This document shows positions 37,474 through 62,230 of a stretch of 64,000 nt of DNA, one piece after another. Made by a program: the position numbers and the translations under genes. Each line of letters begins with the position of its first letter. Position 1 is the first letter of the stretch. The stretch is from a virus, in IMG/VR virus record IMGVR_UViG_3300032401_000001, positions 133,793-197,792 of that record, one strand, 5' to 3'. The notes beneath the pieces were generated by a model. That model was not told where the DNA came from and searched no databases. It saw nothing but the letters and a program-made list of their open reading frames with translations.

Positions 37474-38847
37474 CTACGCCGTGTGCCGGATGGCGCGGAT
37501 GCGGGAGAGCAGGTCGGAGCCTTCCTTCTTCTCCTCTTCCTTCTCCTTCTTCTCGTGCTCCTCGTGCTTCTCGTCCTTCTTGTCGCCGTTGTCGCCGTTC
37601 TTCTTGGCGTCGATCACGGCTTGAAGGGCGGGGGGCAGCTCGCCGGCCTGCTTCTGGTTGGACCGGGTACGATCCTGGCGGCCGGAGTTGCCCTGGTAGC
37701 GCCGCCGGCTGGAGACCGACGCGTGCTTCTCGGCGATCGCGAAGGCCTGGTCGTTCGTGGCCCCGGCTTCCTTGGCGATCACGCCAAGGTACTCGGTCCG
37801 CTCCACGTCGTTCATGCCGATCATGCGCCGCACATGGGCGATCTTGTCCTCGTCGGCGAGGGTCTTGGGCAGGAAGGCTGCGACCTCTTCGGCGGTCTTC
37901 TTGAAGAGCGTCAGGAAGGGGTCGGTCTCGCTGGTCTTGGAGTTCTCGACGATCGAGTTGGCGCTGCTGGGCGGCAGGGCGCCGGGCGGCGACTCGGCGG
38001 GCGCGTTCGGATGGGCTTGCTCGACGCCGACGTTGGCGCCGGTCGGCACCGTCAGGTCGGTCTCGCCCATGCCGGGACGGCCGAGGTGCGCGTAGCCCTC
38101 GGGCCGATTCCGCGCTTCCATCTGGGTCTCGGCGGCCGGCGCTTCGGCCATCGTGTTGCCCTTGTCGCCACCTTCGATGGTCGAGCCTTCGGCCTGCTTC
38201 TGCAGGGCGACGCGCTGGATGATCTCGCGCAGGCTGCCCATCTTCGATTGCTGGATGACGCTGTTGGAGCCGCTCGGGCTCTCCTTCGGGGCGGCGGGCT
38301 GGGGCTGCTCGTTGCCGATGATGCCCGTGCCGCGCCCGGCACCCGAGGCGGTGCCGCCGACGCCGGAGACGCCCATGTTGGCGTACTGCTCGGGCCGGTT
38401 CTTGTTCTCCATCTGGGCTTCGGCCTGGGCGGTGCCCGTCGGCGAGTTGCCCTTGTCGCCACCTTCGATGGTCGAACCCTCGGCGTGCTTGACCTCTTCC
38501 GCGGCCTTCATCATGCAGGCGTAGGCCTGGGTGCCGGCGCGTGTGTCGAGGTCCTGTGCCGCGGAGGTCTTGAGGGCGGCTTCCTCGGGCATCGGTGGGG
38601 CACCCTCGGGGGCCAGACCTTCGCCCTGCGTCTCGGACACCAGCTTGGTGGCCGCGTCGACGAGCGTGGCTGCGACGTCGGCGGCGGTCTCCGGGGACAC
38701 CGGTTCACCGGCGGGTTCGGCGGGCAGCTGGTCACCGACGGCATCGGCGATCTCGTCAGCGGCCTCCTTGACGGGGTAGCGGATGAGCCCCAGACGCACG
38801 AGCTCGTCGTTGACTCCTCGGACGTATGCGCGCTTGAACAGTGACAT
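37474..38847 (-). CDS. Repetitive internal head polyprotein (start MSLFKRAY)
   Basis: 97-aa duplication; more than ten K-x-[ASG] motifs; charged C-terminus; SD GGAGGAG. Confidence 0.7.
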   Translation of the reverse strand: MSLFKRAYVRGVNDELVRLGLIRYPVKEAADEIADAVGDQLPAEPAGEPVSPETAADVAATLVDAATKLVSETQGEGLAPEGAPPMPEEAALKTSAAQDLDTRAGTQAYACMMKAAEEVKHAEGSTIEGGDKGNSPTGTAQAEAQMENKNRPEQYANMGVSGVGGTASGAGRGTGIIGNEQPQPAAPKESPSGSNSVIQQSKMGSLREIIQRVALQKQAEGSTIEGGDKGNTMAEAPAAETQMEARNRPEGYAHLGRPGMGETDLTVPTGANVGVEQAHPNAPAESPPGALPPSSANSIVENSKTSETDPFLTLFKKTAEEVAAFLPKTLADEDKIAHVRRMIGMNDVERTEYLGVIAKEAGATNDQAFAIAEKHASVSSRRRYQGNSGRQDRTRSNQKQAGELPPALQAVIDAKKNGDNGDKKDEKHEEHEKKEKEEEKKEGSDLLSRIRAIRHTA

Positions 38848-38896
38848 CGTTCTCTCCTCCACGGCGGGCCGCAGCGGTTGCTTGGCGAAAGGCTGT

Positions 38897-38910
38897 CCAA
38901 TGATAGGACG
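38897..38910 (-). promoter_or_regulatory. Putative late promoter CGTCCTATCATTGG
   Basis: Second identical copy; TTGTGA lies 17 nt upstream of the TATCAT box. Confidence 0.65.
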
Positions 38911-38952
38911 TACTCTCGGCTTTCACAAGGTTTACCACCGGCTTCGGATACC

Positions 38953-40767
38953 TCAGTAGCGTTCGGGAGGCCCGGTGCCGAACGACTCGCCCATGACGAG
39001 CGCGGGAACGGGGTGCGTACCGTGCAGCTCAGCCGTTTCACCGAAGGCGGCACCCTCGAGAATGGAGTCTTTGAGGTTGCGATGGGCCAGCCGGGCTAGC
39101 CAGTCTGGCCGCAGCAACGGGGCGCGGCTGATGGGCTTCATGAGGGGTTCGTGCAACGGAATGCGCGGGGCGATGGGCACCGTTTTGATGCCGACGCGGC
39201 GCAGGTCCAAGGCTACCGCGGGGGTCACACGCGTGCCGGCGGTGTAGTGGAGCACGTTGTTGCCAAGGGTCTCGCCCAGGGCGTCGGTCACCGACATCAC
39301 CTTGGTGTGCTCAGCGACCAGGTTGCGGAACCGGTTGTAGTCGATGACGTCGCCGCGCAGGAGCCCGAGTTGTTCCGCGTCTCGGTCCATGATCTTGACG
39401 TAGTTCAGATCGGTCTTCGCCAGCAGCTCGAGGTGGCGGCGGTCCAGGTCGAGACCGTGTCGTTTGTAGATGCCTTGCAGCTGATCGACGAGGTACTGGC
39501 GGCCTACCCCTAGTCCTTTATGACGTACGACATCGTCGGGACGGGGGATGCCATCGGAGAGCGCGTCGCCGGCTTCGATCTTGTCACCTCGACGCACGGT
39601 CACATCTAGGATCGGCGGTACGTAGTGCTGTTCTTGATCGACCGTGACGTAGTGACCACCCTGTGGTGCTGCGGCGACTGCCGTCACGGTGCCAGGCTGT
39701 TCTGAGAGCACGGCGCGGTTGAAGAAGCTCTGCGGAATCTCAGTGAGCTGCTTGAGGCCCGACAGGCCACTCAGCACAACTTTCCGTGAGGCGGTGGTAC
39801 GGGCGGCGTGTTTCGCGTTGAGTGCCATCTGGGTGAGGGGTTCACCCATGGCGTGCGCCGCGATCATGCCGACGTTGTCGCCGATGCGTGCGTTCTGGCC
39901 GCGGTTGTTCAAGCCGTAGCAGCGCTGGCAGACACCGTGCGGGGCTTCACAGGTCATCGGTGAACGCAGCACTACCGTCTTACTATGGAGTCGACTCGCC
40001 AGTTGACCCGTGAGCAACGTGCCGGCGGGGATACCTTCACTGGACTTGGCGAGATAACGGTCTCGGGCTTGCGGGTCATCGGCGAGCATCGCCAGGCCGT
40101 TGGTGGTGCCGCAGTCCGGCACCGTGATGAGCTGGTCACCCATGTTGCCGATGAGCAGCTTGCTGATTTCGCCCGGTGCGGAAACGGAGGTATTCGATTC
40201 AACGGCGTTGCGGCGAGCTTCACCCAAGGCGATCCAGGCGTCGATGGGTTTGAGCCCCTCGGCGTAGCTCTTGCTGATGATCCACGGTACGGTGCGCCCG
40301 CGGTCATCGGTAACTGCCACCGGTGACGTCACGGTGCGCATGACCTGGGGCATGCTGCCGCGAGCACCACTGCGGACCATCATCGCGGCCTGGCCGGGGT
40401 GATGCTTGGTGATTTCGATGATCTTGGGTTGCAGGTCTTCGATGAGCTTGATGCGGGCCTGGAGATCGTGGGTGCGCTTCACCTGCGCCAGCACAGGTTC
40501 GAGCAGCGGGTCACGCACGGCGTATTCGGGTTCGATGTCGTCTAACCCGACGGTGACGCCTTCGTCGGTAGCGACGGCATCCCCGATACGCTTGATGTCG
40601 GAGATGGCCTGCACATAGCGTGGGGCGTCGTTACGCGCCAGATCTGACATCAACGCATTGAGCTCGTGCCGCGCCAGTGGTTGAGTGACGTGATGCGACG
40701 CGGGCAGGGCTTCGTTCAACAGCAGTCGACCGATGGTGGTCGTCGCTGGTTTGCGCTTGGTCGGCAT
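38953..40767 (-). CDS. rpoC: Phage RNA polymerase beta' subunit, C-terminal half
   Basis: TTIGR; SGARGS; DCGT and TCEAPHGVCQRCYG Zn site; trigger loop GEPLTQMALNAKH; DRRHLELL; C-terminal G.SFGTG. Confidence 0.95.
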   Translation of the reverse strand: MPTKRKPATTTIGRLLLNEALPASHHVTQPLARHELNALMSDLARNDAPRYVQAISDIKRIGDAVATDEGVTVGLDDIEPEYAVRDPLLEPVLAQVKRTHDLQARIKLIEDLQPKIIEITKHHPGQAAMMVRSGARGSMPQVMRTVTSPVAVTDDRGRTVPWIISKSYAEGLKPIDAWIALGEARRNAVESNTSVSAPGEISKLLIGNMGDQLITVPDCGTTNGLAMLADDPQARDRYLAKSSEGIPAGTLLTGQLASRLHSKTVVLRSPMTCEAPHGVCQRCYGLNNRGQNARIGDNVGMIAAHAMGEPLTQMALNAKHAARTTASRKVVLSGLSGLKQLTEIPQSFFNRAVLSEQPGTVTAVAAAPQGGHYVTVDQEQHYVPPILDVTVRRGDKIEAGDALSDGIPRPDDVVRHKGLGVGRQYLVDQLQGIYKRHGLDLDRRHLELLAKTDLNYVKIMDRDAEQLGLLRGDVIDYNRFRNLVAEHTKVMSVTDALGETLGNNVLHYTAGTRVTPAVALDLRRVGIKTVPIAPRIPLHEPLMKPISRAPLLRPDWLARLAHRNLKDSILEGAAFGETAELHGTHPVPALVMGESFGTGPPERY

Positions 40768-40776
40768 CGGAGAAGA

Positions 40777-41148
40777 TCAACCGCGAGGATTGGCAGGTAC
40801 CATCAGGCCACCCGAGGAACGCCCCTCTTCGACGTGCGTCGATCCACCCCAGGTCGTGAGTCGGTCGAGGTTGTTGGTGTAGGCGTAGTTGGCGTTGTCG
40901 GGGTTACTCCTCCCCTTGATCCCTTCGTCATCCATGTCGCGCAGCAGGCGCGCAAAGCGTTCGGCGCCGATGTTCATGCTCTTCTCGGGAAAGGGCGTGC
41001 CGTGCTGATCACCACCTTCGTTTGGCGGCATCGGGGCGGCGGTCTTGCGCGCCTGGCGCCGTGCCAGCGCGTAGGCGATGTCGTCGCTCATGAGCCCCAA
41101 AGCTTTCAGGGCTTCACCGGCACCGCGACTGAAGAACTCGTCACCCAT
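40777..41148 (-). CDS. Internal head protein with targeting leader
   Basis: FFSRGAGEALKALGL...RKTAA. Confidence 0.6.
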   Translation of the reverse strand: MGDEFFSRGAGEALKALGLMSDDIAYALARRQARKTAAPMPPNEGGDQHGTPFPEKSMNIGAERFARLLRDMDDEGIKGRSNPDNANYAYTNNLDRLTTWGGSTHVEEGRSSGGLMVPANPRG

Positions 41149-41159
41149 GGTAGCTCCGT

Positions 41160-41831
41160 TCAGCGGCCGCTGGTGCCTTCACGCTGGGCACGCGCCAGCA
41201 GCTTGGCGCGCTCCCCGTTGCTGCCGATGACGTCTTCGCTGCCGACGCGACTGAGATGGAGCACCGCGTCGGCGAGGCGCTTCGCCTGTTCTTCCTGGTA
41301 CTGCTTGCCGTAGCCGAGTGAATCGGCGAACTCCATCAATCCCTTGACGACCTGCTTGCTCTTCTCGGCACCAGGTGTGGCTTGACCGTCACCGTGCAGG
41401 ATGCGACGTTCGGCTTCTTCTTCGGCGGCGGCGACAAGTTGCTTGGCCTTGTCGGTGAGCAGCTTCTCGACTTCGGCGGGGACGTCGAGATTGTACTTCG
41501 CTTCGAGCAGCTTGATGAGCTTGCCGAGAAGCACGGTGACGAACGCGGCCAGAAGGGTGCCGATGGCCGTGAGTACCGGCGAGAGCAGCGGCATCCACCA
41601 CTGCTGCACGTTCGCAGCGGCCTTCACGACGGGGGTCGCGGGTTGCGTGGCGGCGATGATCGGCTGCGTGGCGGGCGCCGCTACGGCGATCAGCGGCGGT
41701 ACGACCATGAGCAGGAGCGCCAGGACGAGGAATGCCCCCAGCACGCGGATGCGCCAGGTCAGATGGTGAATCTCGTCATTCCGCATCTGGTCGAGGACGT
41801 TGCGCATCTTGAGCCACGGACGAATCGACAT
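41160..41831 (-). CDS. Holin-like membrane protein (LL-H-type pattern)
   Basis: Two hydrophobic segments, then A..LV.AAEEE.....G.EK...V motif. Confidence 0.5.
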   Translation of the reverse strand: MSIRPWLKMRNVLDQMRNDEIHHLTWRIRVLGAFLVLALLLMVVPPLIAVAAPATQPIIAATQPATPVVKAAANVQQWWMPLLSPVLTAIGTLLAAFVTVLLGKLIKLLEAKYNLDVPAEVEKLLTDKAKQLVAAAEEEAERRILHGDGQATPGAEKSKQVVKGLMEFADSLGYGKQYQEEQAKRLADAVLHLSRVGSEDVIGSNGERAKLLARAQREGTSGR

Positions 41832-41842
41832 GAGGGCTCCTG

Positions 41843-42298
41843 TCAGCGAAGGTTTACCGCGTAAAGCGCGGTGACGATACCCCTAGTATAAGGTATGGAC
41901 GCCTGCTTCACGATGTTGAGATCGGGGTCGGTCTGGTACATCACGGGCTGGTCATGTGGCTGTGGCTGGTCGTCGTACGGCAGCTTCGCGTAGCGCTGCG
42001 CGGAGATTGGCGGCAGCGCATCGCCGCGGAGCTTGGTGCGGATGAAGTCGTCAGCCGCGGCGCTGGCCTTTTCTTGCTTCGCTTCTGCTTCCATCGCCTT
42101 GAGGCGGCGATAGTAGTCGGGAATCTCGGTCAGGTGATCGATGGCGATGTCCGTCTGCTTCGCTGGATCGTCCGTGTGCTCATGTTCGATCTTCTGACCG
42201 GCGGCAACTTCGGCGGCAGAGAAGTCGGACGGCTTCTTGCCCTCTTTTTCGGCGTTGCCGCCGGGGATGCCGCCGGGGAGTGCGTAGGCCATGATCAA
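41843..42298 (-). CDS. DUF5661-like small virion protein
   Basis: G..IE.EHT.D....IA.DHL.E.PDYY..L..ME pattern; EKAS and VKQA motifs; C-terminal YTRGIVTALYAVNL. Confidence 0.6.
   Translation of the reverse strand: MIMAYALPGGIPGGNAEKEGKKPSDFSAAEVAAGQKIEHEHTDDPAKQTDIAIDHLTEIPDYYRRLKAMEAEAKQEKASAAADDFIRTKLRGDALPPISAQRYAKLPYDDQPQPHDQPVMYQTDPDLNIVKQASIPYTRGIVTALYAVNLR
41852..41866. promoter_or_regulatory. Palindrome GTTTAC-CGC-GTAAAG (copy 6)
   Basis: Between the TATACT box (41885) and the start of the second holin-like gene. Confidence 0.8.
41885..41892 (-). promoter_or_regulatory. Putative late -10 element CTTATACT
   Basis: 53 nt upstream of the ATG at 41831. Confidence 0.55.
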
Positions 42299-42504
42299 CC
42301 TCGAGGCACAAGCCCAGTGTCGAGTAGCGCTTGCGCCACGCCGTGCCCGAAGAACCGGCTCTCCTTCTTGCGACCGACGCGCTCGGGGAGCTTCTTGCCC
42401 TTGGGCGTGGTGTCCTCCCAGTGCTTGACGGTGGTCTTCGAGATCTCACCACGGTCAGCCATGGCGTAGAACTTGCCGCGTTGCGCTTGGCTCTTGAAGG
42501 GCAT
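42295..42504 (-). CDS. Small basic MPFKSxAQR-family phage protein
   Basis: MPFKSQAQR.KFYAM..RGEIS...V..W...TP..KKLPERV, then FFGHGVAQALLDTGL. Confidence 0.65.
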   Translation of the reverse strand: MPFKSQAQRGKFYAMADRGEISKTTVKHWEDTTPKGKKLPERVGRKKESRFFGHGVAQALLDTGLVPRG

Positions 42505-42505
42505 G

Positions 42506-44401
42506 TCACTGCTCCTTACGCGTCGGCTGCTTTCGTTCCATCACGCTGACTTTGCCGACACGTGGATCATTGAGAAGGGCGGCGTCATGAAAGCCGAGGC
42601 TTTCGTAGAATCGTTTCGCACCGCGGTTCTTCGAGATACGTTGAAGGGACGTCGCGGGTGTTGGGAGACTCTTCAGCAGCTGTGTGGCAACACCTTGACG
42701 CCGGTGTGGTGGCGACACATAAAGGCCAGTTAAGCGCCCGGTTCCAGGTTCGGCTGCGACGAGTCCACGAAACTTCCCTTCTGGCGTGACATCAAGTTTG
42801 ACCTGATGTGGTGTTCCGAACTCTGACGTACGTAGATCGATGTCGCGGATGTGGAATCGCGCAAGATCTTCTGCGGTGGCGTCGCGGATGTGTTGCGACG
42901 TTTTCTCTTCTGACGGCAGCAGGCCCAGATTCTTGTCGAGGTGCCAGTCCTTGAAGGCCGGCGCACGCAGTGCTCCGGGCTTCTTCGGATGCTCCTTGTC
43001 GTGGTAGAGCCCAAGGGCCTGCACCTTGGCGACGCGGCCGATGTACTTCGCCGGGTTCGACAGCATGTCGCGCTTGAGCGCATGGTCGAGTCCGGTGCCG
43101 ACGTTGCCGACGATCTTGCCCTCGGGGGTCCAGGAGTAGCGGAAGCCGCCGGCCAACTCGGTACGCGCCCCCGTCTCTGGGTAGACCTCACGCACGTAAA
43201 CGTCGTGGTCTGGTCGGAACTTGGCCTTGGTGGGCGGGCCACCGGCGAGGGGCCAGAGCACGACGCCTTCGCTGGTGATGGGTTCCTGCCCGGTGCGAAT
43301 CCGGTTCAGCAGGTCGATCTTCTCTTTCGGCGTCCGCGCCATCGGCGGGAGTTCGAGGAACGGTAGCGACTTGTGGACCTCCCCAAGGATGGACAGTTTC
43401 TTCTCGTAGGGGAGTGACTCCAGGTCTTTCCCGTGGCGCCGCGCGACATCGAAGATGATCGCTCGCAGCGGCGTGTGAGTTTGCAGATCGCGGCTCTTCC
43501 ATACGCCGGAGTTGAGGACGGCGCCCGTATCTTGAGTTCCGCGAGCTCTTCCGGTGTGAGGGTCGGCGGCGACGAGTTCCCCCCGGAGCACCAGTTGGTC
43601 GAGATGATCAGGCACGCGGGTCGTGTATCCCGGCAGGAATCGGTGGCTGTGCTCGATGACCCCGGTGTCGCGTTCGGTAGGACGGTAACTGAAAACCCGT
43701 ACGGGATGACCCGCATCAAGAACGAATGTGTTGTGTGCGCCGTCGACCTTTGCGGCCATGAGTTGCTGATCATTGGTGACGTCGACCTTGTCGGGGGTCG
43801 TCTCCTTGTAGTCGGGCTTGCTCTGGGGAATGTCGGGGCGCTTCTCTTTGGTGATGGTCACGTTCTGCAGCAGCCACTTGTCACCGTGGGTGCGGTGCAG
43901 GACGTACTCGTTGATGTCCTTCCCCTGATAAACGTTGAAGCGTACCTTGTCGCGGTTCGCTTCGACTACGTCGACCGGTTCCTTGAGTGCCATACGGACC
44001 TTGCCGGCGCCGTATCCTGAACCGATCGTCTGCTCACCCTTCTCGCCGAAGTGGAGTGCGTAGTCGGGGGTGTGCGTGAACGTTTGGACGGCGAGCAGGC
44101 GCTCGCCGGGTTCTGGTAGACGAGCTTTCGGGATCGCCCACGAGTGAGCTTTCCCCGCGTCAGGATCAACCAGACGCAGGTCGAAGTGCGCGCGGCCGCC
44201 TGAGCGCGCAGTTTCGTGGTGCTGTACGGCGAGCGTCCAGCGGTTGAGCGTATCGGCGTTGATCGTCGGGAGTGGGGAGACCGGCTTACCCTTGGGGATG
44301 CCCGGGGCGAACTCACCGGGCAGGGCTGCCTGGGCGGTCTTCAGTAGACCGAGGTCCGCCAGCGCGGCGAGGCGACCTCCGATGGTGTAGACCGCGGCCA
44401 C
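42506..44401 (-). CDS. ligD: LigD-type 3'-phosphoesterase + ATP-dependent DNA ligase (NTase/OB) + GNAT fusion
   Basis: QHH...HFDLRL...SWAIPK...H.PDY (PE); AKVDG, LRGEL, IFDV, SEGVV, KAK, VGTG (ligase); LYVSPPHRRQGVATQLL...A.RFYESLGF (GNAT). Confidence 0.9.
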   Translation of the reverse strand: MAAVYTIGGRLAALADLGLLKTAQAALPGEFAPGIPKGKPVSPLPTINADTLNRWTLAVQHHETARSGGRAHFDLRLVDPDAGKAHSWAIPKARLPEPGERLLAVQTFTHTPDYALHFGEKGEQTIGSGYGAGKVRMALKEPVDVVEANRDKVRFNVYQGKDINEYVLHRTHGDKWLLQNVTITKEKRPDIPQSKPDYKETTPDKVDVTNDQQLMAAKVDGAHNTFVLDAGHPVRVFSYRPTERDTGVIEHSHRFLPGYTTRVPDHLDQLVLRGELVAADPHTGRARGTQDTGAVLNSGVWKSRDLQTHTPLRAIIFDVARRHGKDLESLPYEKKLSILGEVHKSLPFLELPPMARTPKEKIDLLNRIRTGQEPITSEGVVLWPLAGGPPTKAKFRPDHDVYVREVYPETGARTELAGGFRYSWTPEGKIVGNVGTGLDHALKRDMLSNPAKYIGRVAKVQALGLYHDKEHPKKPGALRAPAFKDWHLDKNLGLLPSEEKTSQHIRDATAEDLARFHIRDIDLRTSEFGTPHQVKLDVTPEGKFRGLVAAEPGTGRLTGLYVSPPHRRQGVATQLLKSLPTPATSLQRISKNRGAKRFYESLGFHDAALLNDPRVGKVSVMERKQPTRKEQ

Positions 44402-44413
44402 ACAGTGCCTCGC

Positions 44414-44938
44414 CTATCCCTTGCGACCCTTCGCGGTAGTGTGGCCGATGCGCTTGGCGGTGGTCATTTTCTTCTTGTGGGACATCTTGCGCTTCAGCGC
44501 CTGGAAGCGGCCACCGACACCTACTGGAGTACGTGACGCGGATTCACGTGCGCTGCTGGGCCGTCCGTTTCGACCACGAGGGCCACCCAGCTTTTCGAGG
44601 GTGCGCCGTACGATGCCATCGGTGTCGACTTCGAAACCGGCGAACTTCGGTGGTGGCGCCGTGGGGTTGTCGTACTCGGCGTCCTGCATGTCGCGGGCAA
44701 AGTCCGCCGCGGCGCGGGTACGTGCGCCGAGCTTCGTGCTCGAGACGGGGGCCATCGGTGAACCCATCGGGGGCGCAGGGGCGGCCGTGTTCGTCGGGGG
44801 CTGGGCGGCTATGGCCGAAGGCGTCGGTCCGCCCGTCGTGATCGCGGGCGTGGCGCTCGTCTTGACCTGTACGCCGAAGTGCTGCAGTGCCGCCTCAGCA
44901 CCGATGCGAAAGGCCAAGTCGAGATGCCGGTTGCTCAT
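44414..44938 (-). CDS. Internal head protein with leader and very basic C-terminus
   Basis: HLDLAFRIGAEAALQHFGVQVKTSA; G.GGRFQALKRK tail. Confidence 0.65.
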   Translation of the reverse strand: MSNRHLDLAFRIGAEAALQHFGVQVKTSATPAITTGGPTPSAIAAQPPTNTAAPAPPMGSPMAPVSSTKLGARTRAAADFARDMQDAEYDNPTAPPPKFAGFEVDTDGIVRRTLEKLGGPRGRNGRPSSARESASRTPVGVGGRFQALKRKMSHKKKMTTAKRIGHTTAKGRKG

Positions 44939-45024
44939 GCTGACTCCTCAGACGACACGCGCCGCGCCAGGATCCCGGAGGAACGCCAAATTGTCCGGCA
45001 TGTTGGTGCCGGGTTCGGGCGGAA

Positions 45025-45255
45025 CTACGGCGGTCCGCCCGGGGAACGCCCGGGGAGGCGGGTACCCGGGAGATCGGTGGGTAGCTTCGGCGGCGTTGGC
45101 CGCGGCACGATTCCGGGTCCTGGGCGACCGGGCTTAACGTCGGGCGTGGGGATGGGCGGTCGATCTTCCCCCACGGCCACCTTGTTGAGCTCCGTCTCGA
45201 AGTCGTACTGCGCCTGTGCGGCGCCGATCTTGAATGCGGTATCCAGGTGCGACAT
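45025..45255 (-). CDS. Small Pro-rich internal protein with leader
   Basis: MSHLDTAFKIGAAQAQYDFETELNKVA. Confidence 0.65.
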   Translation of the reverse strand: MSHLDTAFKIGAAQAQYDFETELNKVAVGEDRPPIPTPDVKPGRPGPGIVPRPTPPKLPTDLPGTRLPGRSPGGPP

Positions 45256-45282
45256 GGTCTCTCCTTGTAGTTGGGTGAAACG

Positions 45283-45852
45283 CTACGCCCAACTGGGTCT
45301 CTTGAGTCCGGCGGGTGCCGCGGTGCCAGCGGCGGGACGTAGCCCGGCGGGCGCGGCCGGCTTGGCCCCACTGAAGAACTGCGACATGCCCGAGAAGTTC
45401 GGGGTGCCACCAGCAGCGGGAGCTGCGGCGGGAGCCCGCGCAACGGCCGTACCACCACCGCCACCACCAGCGCCGGGGTAGTTGATGGGACCAGCGGCGA
45501 CGGCGGGACTGGCCTGCGGTGCACCACGTCCGGTGGGCGTGTTCGCGACTTGGCCACGCTGACCCATGCCCATGCTGGCGAGAGCGTTGGACGGTTGCGT
45601 GGTGCCGGGACGCTGGACGCCGGCGACGGCCGTTGAGGTTGGGGGAGTTCCGGCGCTTCTGCCACCGAGGCCACCGCCCATGGGCGAAGGACCACTCCGC
45701 GTCAGTGCGGGTTGGCCGATGGTCTGCCCCGGGTCTTGCCCGCGCGATGACGGCACCAGGTCGCCGAACTGGCCGGACTTGTGCAGCTCGGCCTGGAAGT
45801 CGTGTTGCGCCTGGGCAGCGCCCAGCTTGAACGCGGTATCGAGATGGCTCAC
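45283..45852 (-). CDS. Low-complexity internal protein with leader (GTG start)
   Basis: SHLDTAFKLGAAQAQHDFQAELHKSG; SD GGAGG. Confidence 0.65.
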   Translation of the reverse strand: MSHLDTAFKLGAAQAQHDFQAELHKSGQFGDLVPSSRGQDPGQTIGQPALTRSGPSPMGGGLGGRSAGTPPTSTAVAGVQRPGTTQPSNALASMGMGQRGQVANTPTGRGAPQASPAVAAGPINYPGAGGGGGGTAVARAPAAAPAAGGTPNFSGMSQFFSGAKPAAPAGLRPAAGTAAPAGLKRPSWA

Positions 45853-45875
45853 GGAGACCTCCCTGTGCAACCGCA

Positions 45876-45883
45876 AGTATAGG
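45876..45883 (-). promoter_or_regulatory. Putative late -10 element CCTATACT
   Basis: Intergenic, between the RNAP stop and the GTG at 45852. Confidence 0.6.
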
Positions 45884-45901
45884 TCATCGATGGACGATTG
45901 C

Positions 45902-48900
45902 TCAACCGATCTCTATCTCGGCGTTGAGCGCGATCTCACCACGACGATACGCGGCGAGCGCTTCGGCCTTGGTCTTGAAGCGGTACTTCTTGCCGTCCTT
46001 GGCGTTGCTGGCCAGATGCACGCCGACGATGGCTTCGTGCTGCGGGAAGACCAGCAGGTCGCTCTTGGTCTTGTCGCCGAAGAGCAGGTTGGACAGCAGC
46101 ATCGCTTTCACGTCTTTGACGGCGCCGGGCATGACCGGGACGTGGACGGTCAGCGTGTCGCCGTCGTAGTCGAGGTTGAGGCCCTTCTCGATGAACGGGT
46201 TGACGCGTAGCGTCTTGCCGGGCACGGGTACCGGGTAGGCGCCGATCATGCCGTAGCGGTGCAGCGTGGGGGCACGATTGACGATGAGGGGACGCTCCTG
46301 GGCTTCACGCAGCAGCGCTTCACGGGCCACCGGCATGTGGTCTTCGAGCGCCTTCTGTGCATCGACCGCGTGGTAGCCGTTCTGCACCAAGCGCCGGATG
46401 ACGTGTGGACCGTACATCGTCCACATCATGTCTTCGGGAATGCCGACCTCGTCCATGTTGAGGTTGAGGTCGGGGACCGCGGTACCGCGACCACTGACGT
46501 CCTGCGGGCGGTAAAGGACCTTGCCGTGGAAGAAGCCGCCTTTGGGGCTGCCTTGGCCGGCGATCGTCGTGATGAATCCCTTGGCGCCGCGACCCTGCAG
46601 CTGTGGGCTCATCGGGTCACCGAGACCGAAGACCGCCTTGGTGGCGTCGTAGAGATGCAGCCGCGCCTTGGCCACTTCTTCGGGTGGCAGCGAGTGCTTG
46701 GCTGCGGCCAGGTTCTCGTTGGCGAGCATCGCGTCGCGGTACAGGTAATTCGCGTCGGAGACTAGCAGGTCCTTGCGTCCGTGTGACGCCGGTAGGATCG
46801 GGCGCACCACCGGGGGCACGACGCCCAGCTTCGAGATGATGTAGGCCTGGTCCGGTGAGAGCTTCTCCCGTTGCAGCGCCAGGACGTTCTTCAGCTGTTT
46901 CAGGGCACCATCGAGGCGGGCGCCAGTGGCATCACGCACTTCACCACGCAGTTCGCGCTCGCGCTGATCGAGGTTGATGGTTGCCAGACGGCGGCGGACA
47001 CCGGCGCCGCCTTCACGCTCCAGCAAGTCGCGGAACTGTGCGACGGTGAGTCCCAGCAGGCGGCGTACCGGTTCTTCGAACGTCGGGTTCACCAACGGTT
47101 CATGCAGGTCGACGTGTGACCAGCGGGTGCCGTTGGTGCCGCCGGTGACCACCGGATCGAAGAGTCCGCCCTTCTCCGGGGAGAGGTCTTTCTCCTTCAC
47201 CATGAGCGGTCGGGCGATGGCGCCGGCGGAGAGCTTCTTCACGTCGGCATCGGTCAACGGACCGAGCGTCATCTGTTCGTTGCCCTTGTCGACCTTGATG
47301 CCGGCGCCGCGCAGCATCTCCAGGAACTTTTCACTGGTGAACGAAGTGCGGGCCGGCGGCAACGGCAGGCCCAGCTGGTAGGCGCGCCAGAACTCGTCGT
47401 TGCGTGACGACTTGAGGGTCATGGATTCGCGCAGCACGTTGCGGGCGTTGTGCGCCAGCAGGGCGTTGATCTCCATGCGTCCGAGGGCTTTCGCGCCGGT
47501 CGCACCGCCTTTGGCGGGCTGCAGGTTGGCGTCATAATCTTCGACGCCGCGCGCGCTGTAGTTCGTCTCGGTGCTCTTGAAGAGCTTGTAGATGTACTGC
47601 GGTCCGACCATCACACCCTTGCCATCGGGTCCTTTGATGGTCTTCCCGGTCATCGGGTTGTCGAGGATTTCCTTGTCGGTGAGGCCGTGTTCTTTGAGGA
47701 GTCCACGTGCCCACTTCACGTTGTTCTTGCCGCTGAACGACTCGATGACGATGGGCTTGCCAGTCTTCTCGGCGACTTTGGCGACTGCAGTTTCCAGGAT
47801 CTGTGCGGGATTGATGCGGCCATGCACTCCGGTGGGCGGCATGAGCAAGTCCAACGGACGCCCATCCAGGGTGTGCGGCATCTGGGCGATTGGCAGTACC
47901 TGAGAGACGACGCCTTTGCCGCCGTAGCGGTTCGAGATCTTGTCGCCAATCGCCGCGGGTTCACTGGTGCGGACCGTGAGCAGGATGCGCGACGGGGTCG
48001 CGACGACGTCGACGATTTCACCGGGACAGCGGTGTTCCCACGTCAACGCGATTTCACGGAAGGGCGTGTTCAACGTGCGGTGGAGCTTGCCGAGCATGCG
48101 CTGTTCGGCGGTGGGCAGCGCCTTGTGCAACCCGAGGATGAGTGGGTCGCCGGGCTGCAGCGTCTCCCCGGAACGAGCGACGCCGCGGCTGTCGAGGTGA
48201 GCGTACTGGACGGCGGTCCAGCGGCTGCCGAACATGGCGCGGTGCTTGTCGCGCTCGAGCACCGTGTCCAGGTCGAGCTGGAGCACTTCCTTGTACATAT
48301 GCTCGCTGGTCAACTTCTCGGCGGCTGCTTGTGAGATGACCACGGCGTCGTTGGTGTTGGCGCCGTAGTGGGGCAAATAGCCCACGCGGAGATTCGTGCC
48401 CAACGCTAGCCGGCCGTCCATGGTGACGTTCGAGTCGGTGAGGAGTTGTTCGGCGTCAACTTCGTCGCCGGCCTTCACCGTGACGTTGTTGTGCAGGAAG
48501 GTCTTGGACGACAGCGGGAAGTGGTCGTCGTAAGGGATCTTGATGATCGGCGCGGCGGCGGTCTTCTCACCGTCTTCGGCGAGATAGACATGCTCGACGG
48601 GCGCCATCTGCGGCCACTCGCTCGCCGCTTCGGCCTTCTTCTTGCTCTCGGGTCGCAGGTAGATGTAGTCCTGATCGACCTTGGTGATGGTGCCGGCCAC
48701 CGGGGCGTGCGGCACAATGAAGCGCGCGATCTCCTGCTCCATCGTACGGCGGGGATTGAACGACGCGACCTGCACCAACGGAGCTTCACGGTGCACCAGC
48801 GGAAGGGCCTGGCCGACGTGCTTGGCGCCCATCAGTAGACGGAAACCTTCGACGCTCTCCGGCATCGGGATGGTGTTGCTCGACAGCGAGAACATAAAGG

Positions 48901-50347
48901 ATGGATGGGGCAGATCGTAGTCGATCTCGCCGCGGCCGACCGAAACCGGCTGCCCGGCGCGCAGGGCCGAGACTCCGCGTTGCTGGTCACGTTGCCACGG
49001 CAACGCTACCGTGGCGTTCTCGACGTCCTGAACGGCGATGTCTTGGAGTTTGCCGGTTTTGGCGTTGCGCAACAACGTGTGCATCCGGCCCTGCTCGTCA
49101 CGCTTGAGCCAGAGCGCGGCGCGCAGGTCGACGCCGGCATGGAAGCTCTCGGGGGTACGCGCCGGGTCGATGAAACCGAAGTGCGTGTGGTGGAGGCTGC
49201 GCGCCTCGTTGGGGATAGCACGTTCGGATTCGATGCCGCCTTCGCCTAGCGTCGTGACCTTGGCTGCACTGTCGAGAATCTCGACGGGATTGATCTGCGT
49301 CGGGATCGAAGACAACGTGCTGTTGGTGATGAAGCTGCGGAGGGTTCGCGTAAACGGTGAGGGCGGGACGATGCGATCGAGGTCGAGGTTGCCCGAAGAC
49401 GCCTTCATACGCGCCTTCTTGGCCAGGTTGCGCCCCTCCAGCATGATGCGTTCCCGCACGAAGTCGTCGGCGCTCAGCAGTTGTTGGAAGGCGAGGCTGT
49501 CGCGGTCGTCGGTGTCGACGCCTTCACGGTGAACGTCGAGCAGCTTCTTCGAAGCTTTAACTAGGGCCGCCGGGGTCACGTGGGTGAAAGGTGTCCCCAG
49601 GGTTCGTGACGTGACATCGGGGTCCAGCACGGTGTTGTTGTAGCTCTCGTGGATGGCGTCGGCCTTGGCTTCCTGGGTATGGTGGGTGCGGCGGTACTCC
49701 GGCACCAGGCGCTCGTAGAGCTTATCCATCGCTTTGTCGGCCTTCGCCGGCGTACCAGAGAACATGCTGCGATTCTGGGCGACGACCCCGCTGCCCCAGG
49801 CGCGGTTGAGCTCGGTTTCGGGGACGCCGAGCTTGCGCAGGATGGGGTAGAGCGGGATGTTGGTCGTCCCGTATTGCATGTAGAGGTGACCCTTGGCGGG
49901 GTCCATGCTGAGACGGAAGTTGTCACCGCGGCCCAGGTTGAAGGCGGCTTCGAGTTCTTCGTTGCCCCGCACGCGGGTGTACACGCCGGGGCGGACCCGG
50001 CGTTGGTTCGCTACCGAGTACTCGTTGCCATCCACGATGAACGTGTGTCGGGGCGTGAACCACGGCAGCTGGGCCAACGTGATGTCGTCCTTGCGCTGGA
50101 CGGTCTTTCCCGCAGCGTCTTTGAGGACCAGGGATCCCTTGAGGGGTTCCTGCAGCGTGTGTCCCTGCAGCAGCGCGTCTTTCTGTTCGCGGGAGGAGTA
50201 TTCCTTCGAGACTACGTGTAGGTCTTCGACTTCGATGCGGTGATCCCGGAGAGCGAGCGGAAAGACGCGACGGACACCGTCGGTCGCTTTTTCGTGGATC
50301 TGGGTGCGACGTGTGGCGGCATCGATGAGAATTGGGGTCAGAGCCAT
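45902..50347 (-). CDS. rpoBC: Phage RNA polymerase: beta subunit fused to the N-terminal half of beta'
   Basis: beta motifs FIVDGNEY, LGEGG, TPES, GDKISNRYGGKGVVS, GRINPAQILE, GRMEINAL; then beta' motifs GLFDP, VPP..RP, GRG, NRAPTLHR, NLDYDGD. Confidence 0.97.
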   Translation of the reverse strand: MALTPILIDAATRRTQIHEKATDGVRRVFPLALRDHRIEVEDLHVVSKEYSSREQKDALLQGHTLQEPLKGSLVLKDAAGKTVQRKDDITLAQLPWFTPRHTFIVDGNEYSVANQRRVRPGVYTRVRGNEELEAAFNLGRGDNFRLSMDPAKGHLYMQYGTTNIPLYPILRKLGVPETELNRAWGSGVVAQNRSMFSGTPAKADKAMDKLYERLVPEYRRTHHTQEAKADAIHESYNNTVLDPDVTSRTLGTPFTHVTPAALVKASKKLLDVHREGVDTDDRDSLAFQQLLSADDFVRERIMLEGRNLAKKARMKASSGNLDLDRIVPPSPFTRTLRSFITNSTLSSIPTQINPVEILDSAAKVTTLGEGGIESERAIPNEARSLHHTHFGFIDPARTPESFHAGVDLRAALWLKRDEQGRMHTLLRNAKTGKLQDIAVQDVENATVALPWQRDQQRGVSALRAGQPVSVGRGEIDYDLPHPSFMFSLSSNTIPMPESVEGFRLLMGAKHVGQALPLVHREAPLVQVASFNPRRTMEQEIARFIVPHAPVAGTITKVDQDYIYLRPESKKKAEAASEWPQMAPVEHVYLAEDGEKTAAAPIIKIPYDDHFPLSSKTFLHNNVTVKAGDEVDAEQLLTDSNVTMDGRLALGTNLRVGYLPHYGANTNDAVVISQAAAEKLTSEHMYKEVLQLDLDTVLERDKHRAMFGSRWTAVQYAHLDSRGVARSGETLQPGDPLILGLHKALPTAEQRMLGKLHRTLNTPFREIALTWEHRCPGEIVDVVATPSRILLTVRTSEPAAIGDKISNRYGGKGVVSQVLPIAQMPHTLDGRPLDLLMPPTGVHGRINPAQILETAVAKVAEKTGKPIVIESFSGKNNVKWARGLLKEHGLTDKEILDNPMTGKTIKGPDGKGVMVGPQYIYKLFKSTETNYSARGVEDYDANLQPAKGGATGAKALGRMEINALLAHNARNVLRESMTLKSSRNDEFWRAYQLGLPLPPARTSFTSEKFLEMLRGAGIKVDKGNEQMTLGPLTDADVKKLSAGAIARPLMVKEKDLSPEKGGLFDPVVTGGTNGTRWSHVDLHEPLVNPTFEEPVRRLLGLTVAQFRDLLEREGGAGVRRRLATINLDQRERELRGEVRDATGARLDGALKQLKNVLALQREKLSPDQAYIISKLGVVPPVVRPILPASHGRKDLLVSDANYLYRDAMLANENLAAAKHSLPPEEVAKARLHLYDATKAVFGLGDPMSPQLQGRGAKGFITTIAGQGSPKGGFFHGKVLYRPQDVSGRGTAVPDLNLNMDEVGIPEDMMWTMYGPHVIRRLVQNGYHAVDAQKALEDHMPVAREALLREAQERPLIVNRAPTLHRYGMIGAYPVPVPGKTLRVNPFIEKGLNLDYDGDTLTVHVPVMPGAVKDVKAMLLSNLLFGDKTKSDLLVFPQHEAIVGVHLASNAKDGKKYRFKTKAEALAAYRRGEIALNAEIEIG

Positions 50348-50356
50348 CGCGCAGCA

Positions 50357-50363
50357 AGTATAG
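50357..50363 (-). promoter_or_regulatory. Putative -10 CTATACT, near-leaderless for the RNAP gene
   Basis: 9 nt from the box to the ATG; no SD. Confidence 0.55.
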
Positions 50364-50428
50364 ACCAGCGGCTTCCCGAAAAGAACTCAGAGCCCGGTAT
50401 AAGAAGGTGTTGAACCCCTCCCTTTTGA

Positions 50429-50450
50429 CCTCCCCGATCATTCGGGGAGG
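50429..50450. other. 9-bp hairpin CCTCCCCGA-TCAT-TCGGGGAGG
   Basis: Perfect inverted repeat in the divergent intergenic region; no U-tract on either side. Confidence 0.6.
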
Positions 50451-50512
50451 CTCGCGACGGTCGTCAATCCTGTCTCATTTTTCCTAGCGCTACGCAACGA
50501 AAGGGGACCCAC

Positions 50513-51397
50513 ATGTTCGAGAAGAGAGACCTCGTCACCATGGGCTTGCTGTCGGCGGACAATGTCTTCCTGCAGACCAACGCACGGGACGCGAATGGCA
50601 AGATGCTCTCCGTCAACCAGTGCCTGCGCGCCTACGGGGCGCGCGCCCACACCGAGATCCCCGAGTTCGTCACCGAGCTGGCGCGCGAAGGCGTCAGCAT
50701 CTCCACGGACACGGTGCTCGCGGTGGCCACGGCGATGGAGCACCAGTGGTCCGAGTCCGCGGCTTTCCCGTTCGACCCCGAGCTGAGGACGGAGGCATAC
50801 GACCCGCACCGCGTGCCGATGGTGGTGCGCAACGCGCTGATCAAGGTGTTCATCCCCTACCAGACGCTGTGTGACTTGCGCAACCTCATGCGCATCTACC
50901 GGGGCGAGGTGCTGCAGGAGCAGCTCCAGGCCGCGGGCAAGCTCGACTACACGCGCGAGCAGGTCTACGCAGACCTGCTCCGGGCCGAGCGGCAGCAGCC
51001 GGTGTGCAGCCGCATCTGCATCAATCCGGCGTGTGGTCGCGCGGCGCGCACCAACGTCGAGCAGGCGGCGACGTCGATCCTCAAGTACGAGTTGCTGCCG
51101 ATCGCCGGGCAGCTCTGGTCCGGCAAGACGTTCACGCCGCACCAGCGCTGCGTGAACTGCCGCACGCTGGGCCGGACGGCGCCGGCGATGACCGACCAGC
51201 CACACACGAACAGCCACGGACGTGGCAGCGCGCGTCGGCCCTTCCGGGGCGGCAGCATGCGCGAGAAGTTGCAGGCGGCGCTGGCGAAGCCGCCGGTGAC
51301 GCCGGCGCCGACGCCGGAGCCGGTCATGGAACCGACCTCCGTGCCGACGCCGACGCAGCAGGTGGTCACCGTTCCCGCCGAGACGCTCGAGGCGTGA
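50513..51397 (+). CDS. Hypothetical Cys-motif protein, isolated on the plus strand
   Basis: 294 aa; SD AAGGGG; C..IC.NP.C and C.NC motifs; Pro-rich tail. Confidence 0.7.
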   Translation: MFEKRDLVTMGLLSADNVFLQTNARDANGKMLSVNQCLRAYGARAHTEIPEFVTELAREGVSISTDTVLAVATAMEHQWSESAAFPFDPELRTEAYDPHRVPMVVRNALIKVFIPYQTLCDLRNLMRIYRGEVLQEQLQAAGKLDYTREQVYADLLRAERQQPVCSRICINPACGRAARTNVEQAATSILKYELLPIAGQLWSGKTFTPHQRCVNCRTLGRTAPAMTDQPHTNSHGRGSARRPFRGGSMREKLQAALAKPPVTPAPTPEPVMEPTSVPTPTQQVVTVPAETLEA

Positions 51398-51468
51398 ACC
51401 CGGGCGAGAAAGGACATATGGCGATCGTGATGTTGCTGTTGCTCCTCGTCTGAGCGGACGGGAGCTAC

Positions 51469-51957
51469 TTAGGTCGCCGAGACGCCGGCCAGCGGCGGCT
51501 CATCGTCAGACGGCGCGGGTGCTGGTGGGTTCTGCTGCGTGAAGTAGCAGACTGAGATGACCAGCGTGCCGTCCTTCAAGTGCTGTTTCTCCTCCCAGCG
51601 CAACGCGGCCTTGGCTTGCAGGATGTCGTCCATCAAGGTCTCGTAGGCCTGGGAATCGTCCTGGTCGACGTAGTTGGGTCGGCCGCGTTCATCGTCGCCC
51701 ACCAGGCGCTGCCCGATGATGAAGCGGCGCAGGTGGGTACGCATCTTGTCGTACTTCGGCAGCCCCGGGAGCAGGTCTTCGGTCTGACCTCGGGGCTGCC
51801 GCGTTGGTGTATCACCCACCGTCGGTTCGTCCGGCGGCACCGGGAAGTTCTGGAACAATCCGGTGAGGGGGACGCTGGCGCCGCCAGTGTCGTCTGGCAG
51901 CTCCTGCGCGCGCCGCATTGTGGAGGCGACGCTTTCGTTGTCGCTGCTACGTGCCAT
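51469..51957 (-). CDS. Portal-associated hypothetical protein
   Basis: 162 aa after the portal; SD GGAGG. Confidence 0.65.
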   Translation of the reverse strand: MARSSDNESVASTMRRAQELPDDTGGASVPLTGLFQNFPVPPDEPTVGDTPTRQPRGQTEDLLPGLPKYDKMRTHLRRFIIGQRLVGDDERGRPNYVDQDDSQAYETLMDDILQAKAALRWEEKQHLKDGTLVISVCYFTQQNPPAPAPSDDEPPLAGVSAT

Positions 51958-51976
51958 GATGATGTTCCTCCGCCTT

Positions 51977-51991
51977 CTTTACGCGGTAAAG
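51977..51991. promoter_or_regulatory. Palindrome CTTTAC-GCG-GTAAAG (copy 7)
   Basis: Between the portal stop and the next SD. Confidence 0.8.
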
Positions 51992-51993
51992 CG

Positions 51994-53721: not shown

Positions 53722-53727
53722 GCTCGG

Positions 53728-53734
53728 AGGATAA
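53728..53734 (-). promoter_or_regulatory. Putative -10 TTATCCT, leaderless configuration for the portal
   Basis: 6 nt from the box to the ATG at 53721; no SD. Confidence 0.45.
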
Positions 53735-53739
53735 GCCAC

Positions 53740-54180
53740 GTGACCCAAGAGTACAACCGTGATGTCTGTTTGCTGTGCAGCGTCGCCGACGAATGTCTAC
53801 GACTACGTACGGTCGTCGACTGTATGCACTGCCCGGAGAGTTTGACTTGCGCGGGAACGCCGGTGTTCAACACCCCCAAGTGTGAAGCCCGGGCACGGGA
53901 GTGGCACACGGCGCCGCCGATGAGTACGTTGTGCATGTTGGCGTGGCAGCTGCTCGAGCATCACGACGACTTCATCCCGGTGGAACCGATCTCGATCGAC
54001 GACGGTGACAAGAGCATGATGGTGCGGTGTCCCCGCTGCAACAACATCACCGGGGGTTTCGCGCGTAACTACGACCTCCACGTCGAGAGCATCTTCCACG
54101 CCAAGCAGCACATCATGAACCAGGAGTACCGCATCTGGTGCAACTTCTGCGGGCTTGATCTCAAGCGTATCATCTCGTAG
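53740..54180 (+). CDS. Cys-rich Zn-binding hypothetical protein (start uncertain)
   Basis: 3' end of the long plus ORF: CLLC, CMHC, CPRC and CNFC motifs. Confidence 0.55.
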   Translation: MTQEYNRDVCLLCSVADECLRLRTVVDCMHCPESLTCAGTPVFNTPKCEARAREWHTAPPMSTLCMLAWQLLEHHDDFIPVEPISIDDGDKSMMVRCPRCNNITGGFARNYDLHVESIFHAKQHIMNQEYRIWCNFCGLDLKRIIS

Positions 54181-54201
54181 GCTGTCGGGGAGATAAACAC
54201 G

Positions 54202-61270: not shown

Positions 61271-62106
61271 TTCAGCAACGCGTCGTCGGTAGCGTGGAGC
61301 CGCCGCTGCTCCAGTCGATCCCGCAAATCCTCCAGCGCCTTCACCTTGATCTGTCGTACTCGTTCCGAGGATACGCCAAGGCGCCGCGAGATTTCTCGCA
61401 GCGTCTTGGCATCCTCCCGCAGACCGAAGTAGGCGATGAGGACGAACGCTTGTCGATCGGGCAAGCTGCACAGCTGGGCGTAGATGAGTTGGCGAGCGTC
61501 GTTGTTCGTGATGACGGCTTCGTCGTCTTCTTGCGCGGCTACTGCACGGGTGTGGTCATCGCTGACATCGTAGGGAACGTAGACGAAGCCCGCTTCCTGA
61601 CCGGCTTGGCGTGCACGGTGATGCGCTTTCTGCTTGTAGGGCGGCACGTAAACGGTGCTGGCACTGTAGAGCTCAGCACGGATGGATTCTGAGATCCACC
61701 ATGCGGCATAGGTGAGGAAGCGGGTCGTGTAGTGCTGAGCTTCGCGGGCACGGAGCGCCCGGCCACAGCCGGTACAACTTTGTCCCTGGGGGGCGGCAAC
61801 ATAGCATTGCTTGTTGCAGTGGTGGCAGCGGATCACCCAGGGCCGGTAGCGATCGACTGCAATCAGCAAGCCGACGTTGCCGGCCTGGATGAGCGTCTTC
61901 AAGAACTCGGCGTCACCGTGGCAGTACTGCCGGGCAGTCTTGATGACGAACCGGAGTCCACCCTCGACTAAACGCCGCCGCGCTTCCGCGTCTTGTGAGT
62001 TCAAGTAACGCTCGAAGAGGAGGCGCTCCTCTTCGGCGTTACGCGGCATCTGGGTGCGGCCGACTTCCTGGAAGTACTGTTCGCAGGTACGGTCTTCAGT
62101 CTGCAT
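61267..62106 (-). CDS. Sigma70-family sigma factor with a Zn-ribbon insertion
   Basis: Y..EV....EE..L (1.2); LRFV...A..Y, LIQAGN.GL..AVD.Y (2.1-2.2); RF.TYA.WWI...I (2.3-2.4); TL.EI...LGVS.ERVRQI (4.2). Confidence 0.92.
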   Translation of the reverse strand: MQTEDRTCEQYFQEVGRTQMPRNAEEERLLFERYLNSQDAEARRRLVEGGLRFVIKTARQYCHGDAEFLKTLIQAGNVGLLIAVDRYRPWVIRCHHCNKQCYVAAPQGQSCTGCGRALRAREAQHYTTRFLTYAAWWISESIRAELYSASTVYVPPYKQKAHHRARQAGQEAGFVYVPYDVSDDHTRAVAAQEDDEAVITNNDARQLIYAQLCSLPDRQAFVLIAYFGLREDAKTLREISRRLGVSSERVRQIKVKALEDLRDRLEQRRLHATDDALLN

Positions 62107-62172
62107 GGCGTTGTTCAAGCGTATCACGGCTTTACGGCCGTGAGAAGTCCTCTTCCCGTAAAGAGTATCTGC

Positions 62173-62202: not shown

Positions 62203-62230
62203 GAGGTCCTTCTCAACAAGGAGACTCAAG

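Follow-up and report, generated by a model that had tools for sequence, protein, structure and literature searches.

A predicted two-chain, α-free RNA polymerase in an uncultured phage: an ancestral β–β′ fusion and a probably later cut of β′

We describe two minus-strand genes of an uncultured phage, the products of which, judged by their domains, motifs and alignments, are the two chains of a single RNA polymerase core of the bacterial type. P0001 is a protein of 1481 amino acids (aa) in which the β subunit runs directly into the front part of β′, and P0002 is a 604-aa protein that holds the remainder of β′ (β′C). Both genes lie in a 64-kb window, the whole stretch of DNA that was analysed, which is the 3′-most part of the 197,792-bp record IMGVR_UViG_3300032401_000001 (G000), rated as complete by CheckV. 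The preliminary description of the window had already taken the two genes for one RNA polymerase, an assignment that our analysis supports. We consider it likely that they form a two-chain core lacking α, of the kind encoded by Salmonella phage Arash, which would be packed into the phage particle and delivered together with the DNA, and in which the fusion of β to β′ is ancestral, while the split of β′ arose later.

The fusion chain P0001 (45902–50347, minus strand) is identified by its Pfam domains, by matches to solved structures and by a full-length match to the Arash protein gp206. The Pfam domains follow each other in the order Rpb2_3 and Rpb2_6 (β, E 7.6e-40), then Rpb1_1 and Rpb1_2 (front of β′, E 3.3e-18); Rpb2_6 (137.6 bits), Rpb2_3 (30.7 bits) and Rpb1_2 (66.9 bits) are over their cut-offs, and Rpb1_1, at 30.8, lies under its cut-off of 39.7. 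Best matches among solved structures are a bacterial β subunit (Thermus, E 5e-63) and a bacterial β′ subunit (E 8e-41). According to the alignment with Escherichia coli β, residues 1–1024 (47276–50347, minus strand) make up the β part, including the second-barrel lysines at GDKISNRYGGKGV (GDK...GGKG, residues 801–813). The C-terminus of β (...GIKVDKGNE, residue 1024) continues into β′ at about E. coli residue 19, with no linker in the alignment. The β′ front, delimited by aligning the window protein with those of Arash, Vibrio phage D69 and E. coli, comprises residues 1025–1481 (45905–47275, minus strand) and contains the catalytic NLDYDGD (residues 1391–1397; 46157–46177, minus strand). From there, the chain extends for another 84 residues and stops at the equivalent of E. 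coli β′ residue 550, so that the original account of an open reading frame (ORF) of 1481 aa which runs from β into β′ through NLDYDGD and stops about 85 residues later was right.

Two further features of P0001 concern metal binding and drug sensitivity. In P0001, Arash and D69, the four-cysteine zinc-binding domain of β′ (C70–C88 in E. coli) is replaced by a 32-residue gap, and P0001 contains a single cysteine in its 1481 residues. In the β part of P0001 (window 46177–49300), the alignment with E. coli β shows changes at the main rifampicin positions, with T in place of both D516 and S531 and S in place of H526; in Arash the residues at H526 and S531 are N and T, respectively. Because all three main resistance positions of β differ, the enzyme is predicted to be naturally insensitive to rifampicin.

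The second chain, P0002 (38953–40767, minus strand), matches Pfam Rpb1_5 (68.2 bits, over the cut-off) and solved β′ subunits (E 8e-41). It starts nine residues before the motif TTIGR (residues 10–14; 40726–40740, minus strand), which aligns with TTVGR at residue 572 of E. coli β′. The alignment further places the bridge helix at approximately 40153–40224 and the trigger loop at approximately 39808–39846, both on the minus strand, and reveals the cysteines of the second zinc site. The two genes lie on the same strand, 5.1 kb apart, in agreement with the preliminary description, in which the rest of β′ began at TTIGR in a gene about 5 kb downstream; the β′C gene starts 9 nt past the stop of the preceding gene. 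Catalytic elements are divided between the chains, P0001 holding the aspartate triad as well as the second-barrel lysines, and P0002 the bridge helix, trigger loop and second zinc site; hence, both chains should be needed for catalysis. P0001 would contribute the whole of β and the β′ front, which includes the three catalytic aspartates and the clamp coiled-coil, P0002 would supply the remainder of β′ with its bridge helix and trigger loop, and neither chain is expected to be active by itself. As a side observation, no recognisable Shine-Dalgarno sequence precedes the ATG of either polymerase gene (window 50348–50450 and 40768–40810).

These genes constitute the only polymerase gene set in the 198-kb genome, a whole-genome search having found no second one. 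Neither α (PF01000) nor ω (PF01192) yielded a match at E ≤ 1 in the window or in the whole 197,792-bp genome, with positive controls in 14 of 14 genomes; the absence of both subunits, initially stated for the window, thus extends to the entire genome. The covalent link between β and β′ probably stands in for the role of α in assembly.

Among cultured phages, full-length tblastn matches were obtained only with Arash and the Vibrio phages D69, D148 and D181. Over its full length, P0001 is 35.5% identical to Arash gp206, and P0002 is 29.7% identical to Arash gp216. All four cultured phages resemble the present one in the two-chain layout and in the stop just before TTxGR, and the aligned proteins of Arash and D69 also share the joint and the missing zinc-binding domain. 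Differences include the low identity of the chains (only 30–35%), the unrelated content of the gap between the two genes, the catalytic motif (AADYDGD in Arash and D69 versus NLDYDGD here), and a gene for an SNF2 helicase, which adjoins β′C in Arash, but not in this phage. Comparison of all ORFs with Arash (OQ632216) revealed the terminase, gp8, gp10, gp13–15, portal, fusion, β′C, gp218, gp220, gp222, capsid and tail genes as common to both, so that a homologue of the Arash-type σ factor gp10 is present here, too. Gene order is the same in Arash, D69 and this phage, namely portal, one or two small genes, fusion gene, gap, β′C, particle genes and capsid; in D148 and D181, too, the two-chain set follows the portal gene in this order. 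In D181 and D148, the polymerase gene is interrupted by a homing endonuclease gene.

What is known about the location of such an enzyme comes from Arash. Tandem mass spectrometry of Arash virions yielded 3516 spectra for gp206, the most of any protein, 1210 for gp216, 467 for the σ factor gp10 and 1148 for the helicase gp217 (PMC10585845). Per residue, these counts amount to 2.3 for gp206 and 2.0 for gp216, near-equal values which fit a 1:1 complex. The Arash authors propose a role in early transcription; in their paper, the genes are simply named β and β′, and fusion and split are unmentioned (PMC10585845). By homology with Arash, the enzyme of the present phage is probably packed in the particle as well. 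The preliminary proposal of a virion-packaged and ejected RNA polymerase, hence, gains weight from the abundance of the Arash homologues in virions, and for this phage it stands by analogy.

The family to which these proteins belong is large. With residues 700–1481 of P0001 as the query and a limit of E < 1e-30, an exhaustive search retrieved 1448 cluster representatives, and each of the best 150 crosses the β–β′ joint in one stretch; in a word-indexed search the best 120 matches all combine Rpb2 and Rpb1 domains, many of them originating from contigs of 150–207 kb. A pattern scan of IMG/VR revealed at least 525 stretches that encode relatives. The topology, regarded as unusual in the preliminary description, is, therefore, the standard form of a very large clade, recurring within its own lineage in Arash, the Vibrio phages and hundreds of contigs. 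No description of the single- or two-chain layout of the Arash-like family was found in the searchable literature.

Two architectures coexist in this family. In a set of 273 sequences, including two artificial outgroup concatenations, the chain end lies no more than 25 residues from that of P0001 in 215 cases, and 40 natural proteins continue into β′C, resulting in single chains of about 2000–2100 aa, or longer ones where inteins are present. The two-chain forms all end at ...IEIG, 2–10 residues before TTxGR, and the single-chain forms read through this point (...VQVAGKRTTAGR...). Examination of 91 IMG/VR loci returned 54 uninterrupted single-chain forms, 25 split or interrupted ones, and 12 loci cut by contig ends; the single-chain form, thus, accounts for 54 of the 79 scorable loci, with a portal homologue upstream in most. 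The one-chain polymerases (e.g., P0179, P0168, P0181 and loci L031–L110) belong to the same family (33–43% identity) and have in common with the two-chain enzyme of this phage the joint, the place beside the portal and a similar genome size. They differ in that β′ is uninterrupted across the cut site, the whole core being one chain, and in their basal position on both trees described below.

Some relatives carry additional insertions. In P0040, P0047 and many others (50–55% identity), an inorganic pyrophosphatase domain (InPase, PF18823, E 1.6e-32 to 2.6e-52) is found in the β part, between Rpb2 domains 3 and 6, and is not contained in P0001; an enzyme of this type would be a polymerase with built-in removal of its own by-product. 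LAGLIDADG inteins interrupt the polymerase gene in P0016, P0018, P0165 and others, that of P0165 being located directly inside the catalytic DVDGD.

The order of events was approached by phylogeny. With 272 sequences and rooting on E. coli and Cobetia phage Carin-5, FastTree placed the single-chain forms as a basal grade and gathered 223 two-chain forms, among them this phage, Arash and D69, in one clade (support 0.966). IQ-TREE, applied to 78 sequences, likewise united all 36 sampled two-chain forms, together with the single-chain protein P0165, in one clade with an SH-aLRT value of 99. The split clade is, thus, nested among single-chain forms. That the uncut state is ancestral follows also from outgroup comparison alone, because cellular β′ is uncut at that point as well. 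On the basis of these sequence comparisons, the β–β′ fusion is ancestral to the very large phage family, and the cut of β′ before TTxGR probably arose later, and once, in the branch comprising this phage, Arash and the Vibrio phages. Of the initial suggestion that fusion and split were independently derived, the part on the split holds insofar as the cut site is unlike those of cyanobacteria and of the phages RP13 and IME392; the fusion is common to the single-chain relatives, and the split followed it.

The choice of promoters would probably fall to phage-encoded σ-70-like proteins. A candidate specificity factor in the window is a 368-aa protein of the σ-70 family (61267–62373, minus strand), with a clear match to Sigma70_r4 (E 3.8e-13) and a weak one to Sigma70_r2 (22.9 bits). 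A second is the homologue of Arash gp10 (G000 37834–38547), which is 28.6% identical to gp10 and matches Sigma70_r3 above threshold (27.6 bits); two further, weaker region-4 candidates are located elsewhere in the genome. The polymerase is probably made late, along with the particle proteins, and packed in the head; by homology with Arash, it would enter the cell from there along with the DNA and begin transcription independently of the host enzyme. As it is encoded by the only polymerase gene set in the genome, the same enzyme probably also transcribes later genes in concert with other σ factors.

It might be argued that the cut of β′ did not arise within the family, but was inherited together with that of the phiKZ/AR9-type enzymes or with the cyanobacterial RpoC1/RpoC2 cut. 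All of these cuts are found in the same stretch past the catalytic barrel, and according to a review, both the virion and the non-virion enzymes of the phiKZ type are cut there, at a site coinciding with the cyanobacterial one (PMC7598289). At the residue level, however, the cut sites of the Arash-like, cyanobacterial and RP13/IME392 enzymes differ. In RP13 (a Ralstonia phage) and IME392 (a coliphage), β′ is cut about 30 residues earlier than in P0001, within the same inter-domain stretch. Solved cyanobacterial γ chains (624–626 aa) reach the stop of P0001 at their own residues 554–557 and run about 70 residues further; this cut is near E. coli β′ residues 615–620, after TTxGR as the preliminary description had it, whereas P0001 ends at 550. 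Moreover, once the split clade is set aside, the nearest relatives are single chains without a cut, basal on both trees, and the phiKZ-type enzymes, unlike that of this phage, also have a cut β and no σ factor. A shared origin of the cut, therefore, appears very improbable. Even less credence, to the point of being negligible, is given to an explanation of the two-gene state by an assembly error, a frameshift, a decaying gene or a split intein that rejoins the chains. The family is indeed rich in inteins and homing endonucleases, but the stop falls on the same residue in over 200 independent sequences, and the second gene always has its own start, at a distance of 0.6–5.7 kb and with other genes between. 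The end of P0001 and the start of P0002 lie directly in β′ sequence and leave no room for intein halves, and both Arash chains were detected as proteins (PMC10585845). The split-intein and frameshift readings were rejected on account of the common stop, the separate starts and the lack of intein halves.

A stronger competitor, although in our judgement still an unlikely one, is a working phage polymerase which is not carried in the particle, but is produced in large amounts in the infected cell and reads middle or late genes, its detection in Arash virions being due to carry-over. This possibility is raised by the Arash authors themselves, who allow for carry-over of abundant proteins; the 116 proteins called virion-associated include many metabolic enzymes, such as ribonucleotide reductases and a kinase, and the text of the study mentions no gradient purification (PMC10585845). 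Since there is one polymerase set only, the enzyme must, in any case, act after its own synthesis. Against carry-over speak the rank of gp206 as the most-detected protein in Arash particles and the matching per-residue counts of gp216, as well as the position of the gene beside the portal in the particle block of both the split and the single-chain branches. Furthermore, a full set of phage polymerase and σ factors would be harder to explain if the host enzyme made the first transcripts.

We, thus, prefer the reading as an Arash-like two-chain core that is packed and delivered with the DNA; the reservations concerning the Arash virion data weigh against it, as do the following points. For this phage, packaging is transferred from Arash by homology and late timing is predicted from the position of the genes, and the SNF2 helicase that follows β′C in Arash is missing from that place here. 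In P0001, the flap tip, where σ region 4 binds, gives a poor alignment and has about 13 residues fewer. Phage σ factors often redirect the host polymerase, and for this reason the σ-like genes are no proof of serving this enzyme. As regards the order of events, the rooting of the tree depends on two long outgroup branches, and the single-chain protein P0165 within the split clade would imply one split followed by re-fusion, two splits, or a wrong placement. A single origin of the split is still compatible with the tree, because the placement of P0165 has a support of 88% and the protein is intein-bearing.

The two polymerase genes are part of one long minus-strand block with particle genes, between portal and capsid, which bears out their assignment to a virion operon in the preliminary description. 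The portal homologue (51994–53748, minus strand) lies upstream of the fusion gene and is 34% identical to Arash gp204 (E 2e-92); the homologue of the major capsid protein (24740–25657, minus strand) lies downstream and is 38% identical to Arash gp226 (E 6e-67). Pfam gave no family for the portal, the capsid protein and several particle proteins of the window, and PHROGs assigned none to ten neighbouring proteins; these identities are, therefore, based on similarity to Arash. The polymerase genes are probably expressed late, together with the particle genes. From 38000 to 54500, the minus strand has no predicted terminator-like site, which fits such late co-expression, but falls short of proof. 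A hairpin rich in GC, cctccccgaatgatcggggagg, comes after the gene that precedes the fusion gene. Directly after β′C, there is a 462-aa ORF (37474–38862, minus strand) rich in alanine, glycine and proline and without a Pfam or PHROG family; its interpretation as the SNF2 helicase gp217 of Arash was rejected, as the two are unrelated in sequence. An SNF2-family helicase is encoded at 54202–56082 on the plus strand (SNF2-rel_dom, E 6e-20, and Helicase_C) and is a homologue of Arash gp198c (tblastn E 7e-31). At the level of the whole record, the last 126 bases (197667–197792) are a copy of bases 15–140 at its start; because of this repeat, the record is probably a circular or terminally redundant assembly, though labelled linear in IMG/VR.

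The gap between the polymerase genes (40777–45852, minus strand), as defined from the ORF list and Pfam, is occupied by six ORFs on the same strand, encoding proteins of 266 aa, 174 aa, 631 aa, 151 aa (a DUF5661 protein), 223 aa and 123 aa. In the 631-aa protein (42506–44401, minus strand), Pfam recognises a LigD-type 3′-phosphoesterase, an ATP-dependent DNA ligase and a GNAT acetyltransferase domain, an unusual combination that has no counterpart in the gaps of Arash or D69. Gap length ranges from 0.64 kb in D69 through about 4.8 kb in Arash to 5.1 kb in this phage; in ten IMG/VR relatives, it lies between 0.77 and 5.7 kb. The content is unrelated between lineages, Arash having genes on the opposite strand, D69 only a pair of tiny ORFs, and this phage the ligase–GNAT protein. 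Taken from these comparisons, the gap is a variable insertion site outside the enzyme itself. As a cause of the split, a conserved small DUF5661-like gene was rejected, as the small genes common to loci L025, L028 and L029 are unrelated to the gap genes of the window, and a homing endonuclease in the gap was dropped, none being seen in the shortest gaps.

A 15-bp palindrome, CTTTAC-N3-GTAAAG, recurs throughout the genome. A whole-genome k-mer count gave 14 strand-matches in the window (nine sites, at 2790, 5493, 15904, 24106, 30333, 41853, 51977, 54215 and 58545), with 0 expected; G000 as a whole has about 24. Most of them are intergenic and precede a start codon, on either strand, by 2–70 nt. 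In the polymerase gap, one site is found about 22 nt ahead of the ATG at 41831, with which the 223-aa ORF begins, and another lies just past the portal gene. The palindrome is shared by the two closest relatives (L020 and L021) and is nearly absent from more distant ones; a lineage-specific promoter, an operator and an RNA hairpin are conceivable functions. When upstream regions taken from crude ORF calls were searched for 8-mers, no common promoter emerged.

The gain from this window alone is modest, adding one more member to the family; its value lies in the evidence that the split is derived and probably of single origin. The family is much nearer to the bacterial enzymes than the phiKZ/AR9-like polymerases are; it is very widespread, lacks α and ω, and appears to keep factors of the σ-70 type. 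Natural one-chain and two-chain forms amount to a natural experiment on the assembly of an α-free core and on the packing and delivery of a large enzyme, and the cultured members Arash, D69, D148 and D181 make questions of assembly and delivery testable. Speculatively, and with more doubt than confidence, the family might be seen as a self-contained, α-free system in which one covalently linked β–β′ core, packed in the head with a phage σ factor, would be re-used with further phage σ factors, so that neither the host polymerase nor a phage nucleus would be required at any stage of infection; the cut might have been kept since two chains are packed and ejected more easily than one chain of 230 kDa.

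Cellular-type phage polymerases are mainly known from the phiKZ/AR9-like jumbo phages, the sequences of which are too divergent for placement on trees. Enzymes of this type are likewise two-barrel polymerases without α or ω, with β′ cut past the catalytic barrel and with one enzyme packed and ejected (PMC7598289, PMC7824862). They differ, however, in being composed of four or five chains with β cut as well, in the presence of two paralogous sets, in the lack of a σ-70 homologue, and in being far less like the bacterial enzymes; this phage has two chains, a β subunit that is whole and fused, one set, and σ-like genes. The mReC group described by Weinheimer and Aylward in 2020, which likewise has bacterial-like β and β′ subunits in tailed phages, combines a gp23-type capsid with separate, adjacent and uncut β (1011–1377 aa) and β′ (899–1342 aa) proteins, and the underlying screen required NADxDGD (PMC7481178). 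NLDYDGD of this phage does not fit that pattern, and its capsid protein has no PF07068 match. By its sequence features, the enzyme is not an mReC polymerase, given that the mReC subunit table lists separate, adjacent β and β′ proteins; the taxon numbers of the IMG/VR relatives are absent from the mReC supplement, which is not decisive by itself. Carin-5 has a layout resembling mReC, with an adjacent σ gene and an uncut β′. Rhizobium phage TM30 and Carin-5 had appeared, from tblastn pieces, to have the same β′ cut; they were rejected because annotation shows uncut β′ genes in both.

Among cellular enzymes, the fusion in Helicobacter joins the C-terminus of β to the N-terminus of β′; in the alignment with Arash, D69 and E. 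coli, the joint of P0001 runs in this direction. In the Helicobacter/Wolbachia-type fusions, β′ is whole in one chain, as it is in the sister phage lineages, but not in this phage. The RpoC1–RpoC2 split of cyanobacteria and plastids affects the same general region past the catalytic barrel, with the cut about 45–70 residues later than here. Unlike this phage, both the cellular fusions and the cyanobacterial split retain α, ω and the zinc-binding domain, and we know of no cellular enzyme that combines a β–β′ fusion with a split of β′. New in the present analysis are the approximately 40 one-chain relatives of roughly 2050 aa, the predominance of this form among the scorable IMG/VR loci (54 of 79), the order of fusion followed by split, and the residue-level comparison of the cut sites. 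The polymerase itself belongs to a known kind, that of the phage-encoded, α-free and probably virion-borne cellular-type polymerases, and its layout is a variant within it.

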